Assembly (NCBI GenBank): GCA_000004695.1
Contig: CM000152.2
Coordinates: forward strand, 3,104,001-3,168,000
Source of the DNA: Dictyostelium discoideum
Taxonomy: Eukaryota
Length of the DNA: 64,000 nucleotides
Direction of reading: 5' to 3'
The position numbers and the translations under genes were made by a program. Positions within the stretch are counted from its first letter, which is position 1; every line of letters begins with the position of its first letter. The notes below the pieces were generated by a model. That model was not told the origin of the DNA, ran no database searches, and saw nothing but the letters and a program-made list of their open reading frames with translations. Below are positions 52,312-55,132 of the stretch, one piece after another.

Positions 52312-52566
52312 ATGAATATAATTAGAACTACCCAAACATTAAATGCTCAATCAAAGCAATTGTTTAGGTCTTATTCATCACTTACACCATCACAACATCT
52401 TCCAAAGAAACTTAATTTCCCAATAAAAAACAAATTTCATCCAGTAGATTCTATTAAAGCAGTAAATAAAACACGTCATTCAATATTTAAAGCAAGAAAA
52501 TCATTAGATAGAGGTTTATTAAAAAAAGCAGAAGATTTGCTGTGTCATCTGTCAGAGATTTTATGA
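52312..52566 (+). CDS. 84-codon ORF with a mitochondrial-presequence-like N-terminus (MNIIRTTQTLNAQSKQLFRSYSSLTPSQHLPKKLNFPIKNKFHP...). It ends at a TGA one codon before the GTAAGT donor and is out of frame with the downstream TPR exons.
   Basis: The N-terminus is rich in R/K/S/T and has no acidic residues in the first 40 aa. The reading frame is +1 relative to the frame needed to splice into exon 2. It is either the true 5' coding exon disrupted by a 1-nt indel (sequence error or pseudogene) or a separate uORF. Confidence 0.35.
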   Translation: MNIIRTTQTLNAQSKQLFRSYSSLTPSQHLPKKLNFPIKNKFHPVDSIKAVNKTRHSIFKARKSLDRGLLKKAEDLLCHLSEIL

Positions 52567-53836
52567 AGTAAGTTTTATTATTATTATTTTTTAAAATTAA
52601 TTTAAATCATAAAACTAATTAATTTTATTATTATTTATTATTTTTTATTATTTATTATAAATAGAAAAATTGATTTAGCATCATCATTATATGCATATCC
52701 AACATATGCACTTGGATTAGTTTCATTAAAAAAAGGTTATTATTCGACTAGTGAAGATCTTTTAAGAGATTCTTTGAGAAGAAGTGAAGCAATCGATAAC
52801 ATTAGTAAAAATGTTAGAAAGAATATGATAGAGTCTACAAATGATTTAGGTTTAGCATTATTAAGACAAGGTGACTATGGAAAATCTTTTTCAAATTTCT
52901 CTAAAGCAGAAGAAATGGTCAAAGAAGAAATGCTTAACGATAATATTGATCTGTAATTATCTATATTAATTATTACTTTTAAAAATTTTAAAACACTAAT
53001 TTATTTAAACTTTTTTTTTTTTTTTTTACAGTTACTTTTTACTTCCAGCAATTTACTCAAATATTGGCGAATATTATAGAGAATTTCATTGTTATGATAC
53101 ATCGATTGAGTTTCATGCAAGAGCACATAATTGTTTATTAGCATTTCCAGAAGAACAATTAAATTTAGCAAGATGTCTCCTTAATAGAGGACAATTATAT
53201 AGAATATCCAATCAAATCGAGGTAGGCAAAGAGTTTTTAGATGCTGGTCAAAAGAAATTGATAAGTTATTTGAACTCTATAGACTCAAGACCAACACCAA
53301 ATCATATGGATTGGTCAAAATTTTTAATGGAGTATGGACATTATTATTTCAGTATAGGTAATATTGAAAAAGCTAGAAAAAAGTTTACCTCTGCAAAAGA
53401 TCATTTCATATCAATGGATAATTCAGAAACACCAGATGCAATTATAAACATGATCAATCTCGCCATCATTGAAAAAAATTTCCCAACCTTACCATCAGCT
53501 CAATCCGACACTTACATCTCTGAAATTTTAGCTTCCATTCAATCACCACTTCACAAATTAAAGAATCAAAGATTCAATTTAGATTCATATGAAATAGATT
53601 CAGCAATTCAAAGTTTAGTGAATGATCCAATTCAAACAACAACAACTACAACAACTACAACAACACCAAATCACAATAACAATACTAAAGCGGCATCCAA
53701 AAATACTAACATCACTTTTAAACCAGAAATCACTTTTAAACCAGAACCAAGTAAAGTGAAATTAGTTGAACCACTTGCATTCCAATTAATGTTTATTGAA
53801 TCTCAAACTCAACCAAGCTTCGGGTTAAAATATTAA
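52563..53836 (+). CDS. TPR-repeat protein (possibly TTC19-like, mitochondrial), 3 exons in the best model: 52563..52567 (ATGAA), 52665..52952, 53032..53836. The upstream ORF 52312..52566 is reported separately.
   Basis: Exon 2 reads KIDLASSLYAYPTYALGLVSLKKGYYSTSEDLLRDSLRRSEAIDNISKNVRKNMIESTNDLGLALLRQGDYGKSFSNFSKAEEMVKEEMLNDNIDL. Exon 3 reads YFLLPAIYSNIGEYYREFHCYDTSIEFHARAHNCLLAFPEEQLNLARCLLNRGQLYRISNQIEVGKEFLDAGQKKLISYLNS...GHYYFSIGNIEKARKKFTSAKDHF..., which has the alternating A/Y/L/G periodicity typical of TPR. Donors are GTAAGT and GTAATT. The TTC19 assignment is a guess from domain content. Confidence 0.55.
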
Positions 53837-53958
53837 TTTAATAAATTGTTTGATTGATTTATTATTTTGTATCATATTAAAAAAAAGATTCACTGTTTTT
53901 GTTTTTTTTTTTTTTTAATTTACAAATAATTGATTAAATTAGAATCTTAGATTTTTTT

Positions 53959-54216
53959 TTGAAACCTGAGTTCATTGAGAAGAAGTAGAAGAAGAGGGTA
54001 TCTACTACTTTAAAATGATTTAATTTTGGTAAGGCCAAATCTCTTTTCTTTTTTTTCTGGGAAATTTCATCTAAATTAAATTGGCTGCTACCAAAATCTA
54101 AAATGTGTTTTAATAATACAATTATACAATACTTATTTAGATTTAAATACTCCAAAATAATTATTTTAAAGTAGTAGATACCCTCTTCTTCTACTTCTTC
54201 TCAATGAACTCAGGTT
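53959..54216. mobile_element. About 258-bp foldback/MITE-like element: perfect ~56-bp terminal inverted repeats flanking an ~145-bp AT-rich core. No coding capacity.
   Basis: The left arm gaaacctgagttcattgagaagaagtagaagaagagggtatctactactttaaaat (~53959..54015) is the exact reverse complement of the right arm attttaaagtagtagataccctcttcttctacttcttctcaatgaactcaggttt (~54160..54216). The core also has partial internal symmetry (ttttggtaaggcc / ggctgctaccaaaa). The 73-aa track ORF on the minus strand here is an artefact. Confidence 0.65.
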
Positions 54217-54658
54217 TTTAACTTTGTTAACATTGTACACCAAAATTGAAAAGTAAAATTTATATTTCCCTAATAATTTTTAAATTATAAAGTTTGTGGT
54301 ATTTTTATTTTTATTAATTTTAAATAGGCCTCTTTTAAATTTAATTAACATTTAATTTAATTGAAATTAATATATTAATAAAAAACTCAATCTAATCCCA
54401 AAAAATTCATTTTAGGAATTAAACTTGTTTCAGCCATTAAACTATTTTTTTTTTTTTAAAATAGTTTATAATATAATTAATAAAAAATTATGATAAAAAT
54501 TAAGAAAATCTAATGAAAAAGAAAAAAATAAACCAGATAGTTAAAAACAATAATAAATTTATATCAATCAAATTTTTGTTGAATAATATTAAATATTTAA
54601 TATTTAATAAAATTTATTTTTTTAAAATTAAACTTGATTTTAAAAATGGATAGGTGGT

Positions 54659-55132
54659 TTAAAAAGAAACAGATAAAACATCCAAATTTGCAGGTTGAGT
54701 ACCTTCAAGAATGAAACCAAATGTAAAGGAAGCATGGGCATTGATTGATGGTTGGTATGATGGAAGAGTGAGAATACCGTTTGGTAAAAGGTTAACATTC
54801 CAGATTGAAGTATTTGAATGATCTCTTAATCTTAAAGTGTAATCAGTGGCAATGTAAATTTGTTTAATATTTGTATTTAAATTATTTGTGATTGTAATAT
54901 CATATTGAGTGAATCTTTTATTACCACGTGAACCATCTACCCAAGTACCAATTACCTTTGTTGATAATGAAACTTCATGACAATCATTAATTGGAATACA
55001 ATTACAAACACCATTATCAATTCTACAAACTTGACCATATTGACAACTATATGGGCCACATTGGTATGGGAAACTTGCTGAAGCAAATGCAATTGTTAAT
55101 AATAAACTTAATAAAATAAGGATTGATCTCAT
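54659..55132 (-). CDS. Secreted 157-aa protein: signal peptide, a Cys-rich knot, then a Dictyostelium-type carbohydrate-binding (CBM49-like) domain. Single exon.
   Basis: It begins MRSILILLSLLLTIAFASASFPYQCGPYSCQYGQVCRIDNGVCNCIPINDCHEVS... (8 Cys in 40 aa), then VIGTWVDGSRGNKRFTQYDITITNNLNTNIKQIYIATDYTLRLRDHSNTSIWNVNLLPNGILTLPSYQPSINAHASFTFGFILEGTQPANLDVLSVSF. The W..G......Y...I.N...I...W.V....LP....FGF pattern is that of the cellulose-binding domains of slime-mould spore-coat/CelB-type proteins. I assigned the domain from memory. Confidence 0.65.
   Translation of the reverse strand: MRSILILLSLLLTIAFASASFPYQCGPYSCQYGQVCRIDNGVCNCIPINDCHEVSLSTKVIGTWVDGSRGNKRFTQYDITITNNLNTNIKQIYIATDYTLRLRDHSNTSIWNVNLLPNGILTLPSYQPSINAHASFTFGFILEGTQPANLDVLSVSF

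Follow-up and report, generated by a model that had tools for sequence, protein, structure and literature searches.

In plants, the inverted duplication of a target gene is the established model for the birth of a new miRNA gene. Template switching is a further described route to such structures, as it generates perfect hairpins in a single event and renders quasi-palindromes perfect (PMC10710096), and in yeast promoter inverted repeats it is described to expand imperfect inverted repeats and their arms (PMC13100816). In dictyostelids, miRNA repertoires turn over very fast and the origin of new hairpins has not been worked out (PMC11014262). [quoted passage not shown] Dictyostelium also hosts thug-S, a repetitive DNA transposon with multicopy miRNA loci (PMC4894637, PMC6161686).

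Here we describe a long perfect hairpin in a 64-kb stretch of D. discoideum DNA (hereafter the window, whose positions are used throughout). With a probability of roughly 70%, we consider this structure a lineage-specific local inverted duplication generated by template switching or fold-back priming, rather than a mobile element or an established RNA gene. On this reading the locus adds one more case to a mutation class already described, the template-switch-type local inverted duplication, and it represents a clean and datable case in which one local inverted copy led to a long perfect hairpin while the relatives display the prior state.

A repeat scan identified two arms of 59 nt at positions 53962-54020 and 54159-54217, which are 98% complementary, carry one mismatch and are separated by 138 nt. 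A pattern search returned an exact portion of 55 nt, consisting of 53962-54016 on the left and 54163-54217 on the right (the latter extending to 54159 with the one mismatch), with 0 mismatches between the left arm and the reverse complement of the right one and 0 occurrences expected in shuffled sequences; the core between the arms measures 138-146 nt. A foldback unit with perfect inverted repeats of about 56 bp had been proposed by the first-pass annotation: the repeats are real and exact over 55 nt, and the boundaries assigned to the unit (53959-54216) are off by 1-3 nt. Just outside the arms, the G at 53961 and the T at 54218 do not form a Watson-Crick pair and could be joined in RNA by a G-U wobble only. 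The 55-nt sequence occurs exactly twice in the 64-kb window, once per strand. Nowhere else in the window is an exact inverted repeat within 3 kb as long, the runner-up (GC of at least 0.2) having 15 nt. The GC content of the arms is about 33%, compared with 10-15% for the surrounding spacer.

Folding calculations, performed as had been proposed for the unit, returned a single long hairpin for positions 53962-54217 (about 256 bp), with a predicted energy of -118.5 kcal/mol and a z-score of -17.2 for the plus strand as RNA, -113.2 kcal/mol for the minus strand and -73.8 kcal/mol (z-score of -16) for the DNA. The core alone is predicted to form two small local stem-loops (-21.8 kcal/mol, z-score of -2.6) that do not continue the main stem, and in a self-reverse-complement blastn its centre showed about 52% identity with gaps, a value corresponding to the AT-rich background. 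The partial dyad symmetry formerly attributed to the core is thus weak.

The hairpin is located, as originally described, in an intergenic spacer towards which a TPR-like gene on the plus strand (52312-53836, with the stop at 53836) and a CBM49 gene on the minus strand (54659-55132) converge with their 3' ends, at a distance of 125 nt from the former and 441 nt from the latter. The protein encoded by the CBM49 gene matches D. discoideum AX4 XP_641328.1/Q54VM7 without any difference, and the ATP11 gene nearby corresponds to DDB_G0280243. The sole ORF across the hairpin encodes 73 aa, begins with a TTG without an in-frame upstream ATG and is not a called gene, while the arm shows one open frame, N[HY]FKVVDTLFFYFFSMNSGF, with codons ending in C. 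When the 73-aa ORF was compared with 5.8 billion proteins, no word-sharing match was retrieved even at E ≤ 10; the last TPR exon used as a protein query gave no match. Since the arm frame has no relative among these proteins, the arms do not derive from part of a known coding gene. A coding origin of the arms was ruled out, and the statement that nothing coding lies inside the unit holds, as it contains only the TTG ORF with neither database relatives nor a gene record.

Orthologous loci were reached via members of the CBM49 and ATP11 protein clusters, and the synteny of the GPR137-like, CBM49, TPR and ATP11 genes confirmed the orthology of the fetched loci. For the CBM49 cluster members P0001, P0003, P0023 and P0026, the locus reached was the paralogous staA/staB cluster, and they were left out. 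The loci compared belong to L001 (GCA_054883475.1, an independent chromosome-level D. discoideum assembly), L005 (GCA_054859355.1) and L006 (GCA_054859385.1), both labelled D. discoideum, L009 (D. cf. discoideum), L004 (D. citrinum) and L010 (D. dimigraforme). The spacers of the last two species are unalignable or much shorter: the region between TPR and CBM49 is only 367 nt long in D. dimigraforme (L010:19485-19851) and about 900 nt in D. citrinum (L004:5475-6375), where it cannot be aligned and includes GC-richer stretches. The alignable spacers are those of L005, L006 and L009. With two assemblies that have the repeat and three lineages without it, the sample is small, which weakens the explanation favoured here. 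The divergence of L005 and L006 from the window and L001 amounts to about 3.5-4% for the TPR and ATP11 gene regions and reaches about 15-20% for the spacer. Such a divergence from AX4 exceeds the expectation for one species and suggests that cryptic lineages may exist inside the D. discoideum complex.

An assembly or cloning artefact of the reference sequence might be suspected, because assemblers can create or collapse palindromes and the neighbouring TPR gene of the window carries a probable 1-nt error. This explanation is barely credible. L001 aligned to the window with 99.45% identity over 19.4 kb (16 mismatches and 18 gaps) and differs from it elsewhere, yet its whole 821-nt spacer, hairpin included, is identical; the presence of the same structure in an independent assembly argues that it does not originate from the assembly.

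The orthologous spacers of L005, L006 and L009 contain one arm each (in L009 as judged from the alignment), and a direct repeat scan detected no long inverted repeat in L005, L006 and L004. The origin and orientation of each segment of the AX4 locus are read directly from the alignments. The right flank together with the right arm (54256-54163), segment Y (54167-54091), segment W (54082-54037) and the left flank (53960-53830) are collinear with the relatives. In particular, positions 54256-54195 correspond to L006 5834-5898 and positions 54190-54163 to L006 5900-5927, which identifies the right arm, collinear with the single arm of L005/L006, as the ancestral source copy. The core consists of ancestral spacer in its original orientation, namely W (54040-54090), where positions 54082-54039 match L009 3208-3251 with 93% identity and positions 54055-54037 match L005 6198-6216 at 19 out of 19 nucleotides, and Y (54091-54158), collinear with L005, L006 and L009.

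The derived tract spans positions 53962-54039 and is a 78-nt reverse-complement copy of the ancestral arm and of the adjacent segment X, which in the relatives consists of about 23 nt flanking the single arm. The tract comprises the left arm (53962-54020) plus 'GATTTAATTTTGGTAAGGCCAAA', its X-derived part, X', being located at 54021-54039 ('TAATTTTGGTAAGGCCAAA'), and it finds inverted matches only, in L005/L006, at their single arm and X: positions 54029-53962 align with L006 5940-5876 (85% over 68 nt) and positions 54029-53968 with L005 5879-5821 (87% over 62 nt), 'TTTGGCCTTACCAAA' being identical at 15 out of 15 nucleotides in L005. At the collinear site, L005, L006 and L009 display instead a segment of about 23 nt, K ('TTAAATTAACATTTTCAAGTTAA', also written 'TTAAATTAACATTTTCA(A/C)GT..'), which is nearly the same in L005/6 and L009. 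As the rest of the spacer is collinear and positions 53962-54039 match in inverted orientation only, the sole novel DNA in AX4 is the 78-nt reverse-complement copy that overwrote K. Three losses are also seen in AX4: X is missing beside the source arm, with AAAAT direct repeats at the ends of the deletion, X' is short of 18 nt, with TTTGG repeats at the ends, and a further segment, Z, has lost about 190 nt.

Two observations concern the ancestral parts of the spacer. The L009 arm is a diverged version with expanded GAA/GAT repeats; in this orthologue (L009:2800-2880) both (GAA)n and (GAT)n are expanded, and the arm has a purine-rich centre, GAAGAAGTAGAAGAAGAG, with the behaviour of a microsatellite. 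Segment Y holds a small AT-rich local stem-loop (AAATCTAAA...TTTAGATTT), and the blocks AAATCTAAA and TTTTAGATTTTGG (54091-54167), which flank this small AT-rich palindrome, are conserved in AX4, L005, L006 and L009; covariation analysis of Y gave no support for a conserved RNA structure (covariation term of +2.19).

The homology map bears directly on the suggestion that the unit is a MITE-like copy. A non-autonomous DNA transposon, MITE or foldback, inserted in the spacer would account for a short unit of about 256 bp devoid of coding capacity with long terminal inverted repeats (55 nt perfect, 59 nt at 98%), features also shared with thug-S and similar elements, which were compared by description. 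However, no target-site duplication, the hallmark proposed for verification, was found in the flanks (...TTTTTTTTTG and TTAACTTTG...), and a search for direct repeats of 2-10 bp abutting the arms (...GATTTTTTTTTG | element | TTAACTTTGTT...) was negative. The relatives do not show a precise empty site, since L005, L006 and L009 keep the right arm, Y and W and only positions 53962-54039 are novel; moreover, unlike a MITE-like element, the second arm was demonstrably copied from the adjacent DNA, whose lineage-specific changes the 78 nt carry. Neither the 64-kb window nor about 130 kb of related loci yielded an additional copy, and the same holds for JGI metagenome contigs, which were scanned for the arm with the AX4 and L005/6 variants allowed; the ORF across the unit has no database relatives. 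A transposon origin is consequently very improbable and, as two features that define a MITE, the target-site duplication and the empty site, are absent, the MITE-like assignment was abandoned.

The polarity of the change was evaluated from the flanking genes. The TPR and ATP11 identities were 96.5% and 96.2% between the AX4-like sequences and L005, 94.4% and 93.5% between the AX4-like sequences and L009, and 94.0% and 94.9% between L005 and L009, respectively. These values place L009 as the outgroup to AX4 and L005/6, and the single-arm state is thus ancestral by parsimony, although the ATP11 distances would place L009 outside only weakly (94.9% for L005-L009 against 96.2% for AX4-L005). Both AX4 arms share about 5 substitutions and one 3-nt indel with respect to the arm of L005/L006, with 0 differences out of 55 positions between them. 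As the arms share these lineage-specific changes, the copying came after them; either the copy would be much younger than the split between AX4 and L005/6 or the arms may have been homogenised later. The recent origin originally put forward for the repeat is borne out by the identity of the arms, by the occurrence of the AX4-specific differences in both of them and by the absence of the second arm from three related lineages.

A different history would be that of an ancient inverted repeat kept perfect in AX4 by arm-to-arm gene conversion, with the left arm independently deleted in the L005/6 and L009 lineages. Long inverted repeats are indeed prone to deletion, and K of L005, L006 and L009 resembles an arm whose inner end is joined to its outer end, the 43 nt in between being absent (TTAAAT..CATTTT + CAAGTT). 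However, the inverted match of K to the arm/X boundary is borderline, at or near chance in shuffling tests (p = 0.045 for L006 and 0.29 for L005). In addition, K is nearly identical in L005/6 and L009, and a deletion would therefore predate their split, in which case the AX4 arm must have been re-created secondarily. This history requires more events than a single gain and we regard it as unlikely. From its sequence, K could still be the relic of an older, internally deleted left arm, with the AX4 structure representing the re-conversion of an old repeat; since L005/6 and L009 share K, the AX4 arm would be a secondary re-creation under this interpretation too.

The local inverted duplication may be reconstructed as follows. 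The ancestral spacer, read 5' to 3' on the minus strand of the window, would have consisted of the right flank, the arm, X, Y, Z, W, K, a poly(A) stretch and the left flank, with one arm and no long inverted repeat, an arrangement preserved in L005/L006 and in the more distant L009. In the AX4 lineage, the 78 nt of arm plus X would have been copied in reverse complement onto K, about 310-400 nt away, overwriting about 23 nt, and the perfect stem would have arisen from this copying in one step. Most likely, a polymerase switched template or was primed by a fold-back in the course of replication or break repair; microhomologies at the inner (TTT) and outer (CA(G/A)GTT) junctions, together with a quasi-palindromic match of 18-20 nt that K shows to the arm/X boundary, may have guided the event. 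Subsequently, X in the source (AAAAT), 18 nt of X' (TTTGG) and about 190 nt of Z would have been deleted between short direct repeats, leading to the present stem of 55-59 bp and loop of 138 nt. The segment map with its orientations, the lack of the second arm in three lineages, the tree and the identical arms are direct observations, from which we infer how the copy was made and in which order the deletions followed. A reverse-complement copy that overwrites its target and carries microhomologies at its junctions represents the signature of template switching or fold-back priming.

The locus was then compared with the described template-switch mutations, i.e., the primate and mouse hairpins, including de novo miRNAs (PMC10710096), and the yeast promoter inverted repeats (PMC13100816). 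In these, as in AX4, a nearby sequence copied in reverse complement overwrites the target, the whole stem is paired in one step, sister and outgroup lineages lack the hairpin, and microhomologies at the junctions accompany a weak pre-existing inverted match at the target. According to PMC10710096, a template switch is recognised by an inverted copy of at least 15 nt with a nearby source that explains at least 5 mismatches, and here the 78-nt tract replaces the roughly 23 nt of K. The parental sequence is expected to be free of an equally long hairpin, and none was found by scanning L005, L006 and L004, while L009 has a single arm. The same work considers a single event with an intact source, whereas the AX4 source is now without X, a part of the duplicated segment that was lost afterwards, and Z is shorter by about 190 nt, so that additional deletions must be assumed. 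The three deletions needed besides the duplication count against our explanation, as do the length of the tract (78 nt) and its distance from the source (about 310-400 nt in the ancestral layout), which exceed those of the described template-switch hairpins, the miRNA-like stems of PMC10710096 being 30-55 nt long. A further difference is that the polymerase mechanism is deduced here from the outcome.

The other candidate put forward for the unit was a hairpin-RNA or miRNA-type precursor. It might be a functional gene, either a young miRNA or a hairpin-siRNA precursor. Transcription would then start at the T-run/G just upstream or result from read-through of the TPR gene, and DrnB/DrnA would cut the product into 21-nt RNAs. 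The predicted fold, with its perfect stem of 55-59 bp and -118.5 kcal/mol (z-score of -17), is of the type described for miRNA genes (PMC11014262, PMC4894637). Fast turnover and the location of young dictyostelid miRNAs on unusually long, near-perfect hairpins (PMC11014262) are in line with this proposal, and new miRNA genes are known to arise from template switches (PMC10710096). A run of nine T followed by G (53952-53961, plus strand) lies immediately 5' of the hairpin base and is reminiscent of the T-rich/G motif at which the transcription of pri-miRNAs is described to start (PMC6161686, section 2.8); however, this motif is generic, at least nine T followed by G occurring 42 times in the 64-kb window.

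Neither Liao 2018 nor Edelbroek 2024 lists the arm sequences in its D. discoideum miRNA tables (supplements to PMC6161686 and PMC11014262), and the candidacy of the arms as a known miRNA was discarded. Six to twelve tiled arm subsequences, in both DNA and RNA alphabets, gave no match in the full-text literature searched or in those two supplements, and a search of Rfam returned nothing above threshold, the hits being of the chance type (e.g., mir-7957, 21.2 bits against a gathering score of 76). A perfect stem with a 138-nt loop is moreover atypical for canonical miRNA precursors. [quoted passage not shown] The comparison with miRNA birth in plants leads to a similar distinction. Both involve an inverted duplication that yields a perfect hairpin able to enter the siRNA/miRNA pathway, but the AX4 segment is intergenic and the arm frame has no protein match; as the window also holds no other copy of the duplicated sequence, no target is evident. 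A functional RNA gene is doubtful, if slightly more probable than the other alternatives weighed here.

If transcribed, the hairpin would be a good substrate for Dicer (DrnA/DrnB), and its 59-bp duplex would then be raw material for a new small-RNA locus. There is also a slight chance that the hairpin, created in one template-switch step downstream of the T-run/G, already undergoes transcription and dicing, its products being lineage-specific siRNAs or a proto-miRNA that stringent miRNA annotation would have filtered out. The analysis yielded no sign of a function: the local inverted duplication is most likely selectively neutral, and the relatives L005, L006 and L009 do without the hairpin. 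Should small RNAs derive from the hairpin, the locus would link template switching directly to the birth of small-RNA genes outside animals; should they not, it would be an unremarkable, neutral structural variant that warns against taking every foldback for a MITE.

Finally, some features of the flanking genes were recorded. The CBM49 gene and its staA/staB-type paralogues (L002, L003, L007 and L008) share 94-98% protein identity both within a genome and between species, and the CBM49 90% cluster has 32 members. At this level of identity orthology is unreadable from sequence alone, and the pattern points to concerted evolution of the gene and its paralogues, whose downstream homology ends about 190 nt past the stop, short of the arm.

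In exon 1 of the TPR-like gene, L001 and L005 carry GATTTTGC at the place where the window reads GATTTGC (52530-52540). The deletion removes 1 nt from a T-run and causes a frameshift, with a premature stop (52564-52566) shortly ahead of the GTAAGT donor. The exon 1 product in all relatives is ...AEDFAVSSVRDFMK; the deletion may be either a sequencing error of the reference or a real frameshift in this strain. Within the TPR coding region, positions 53711-53746 consist of a perfect 18-bp tandem duplication (ATCACTTTTAAACCAGAA x2) encoding ITFKPE-ITFKPE. The motif is single in the L005 and L006 proteins, and the repeat is a second duplication specific to the AX4 lineage, only about 220 nt from the hairpin.
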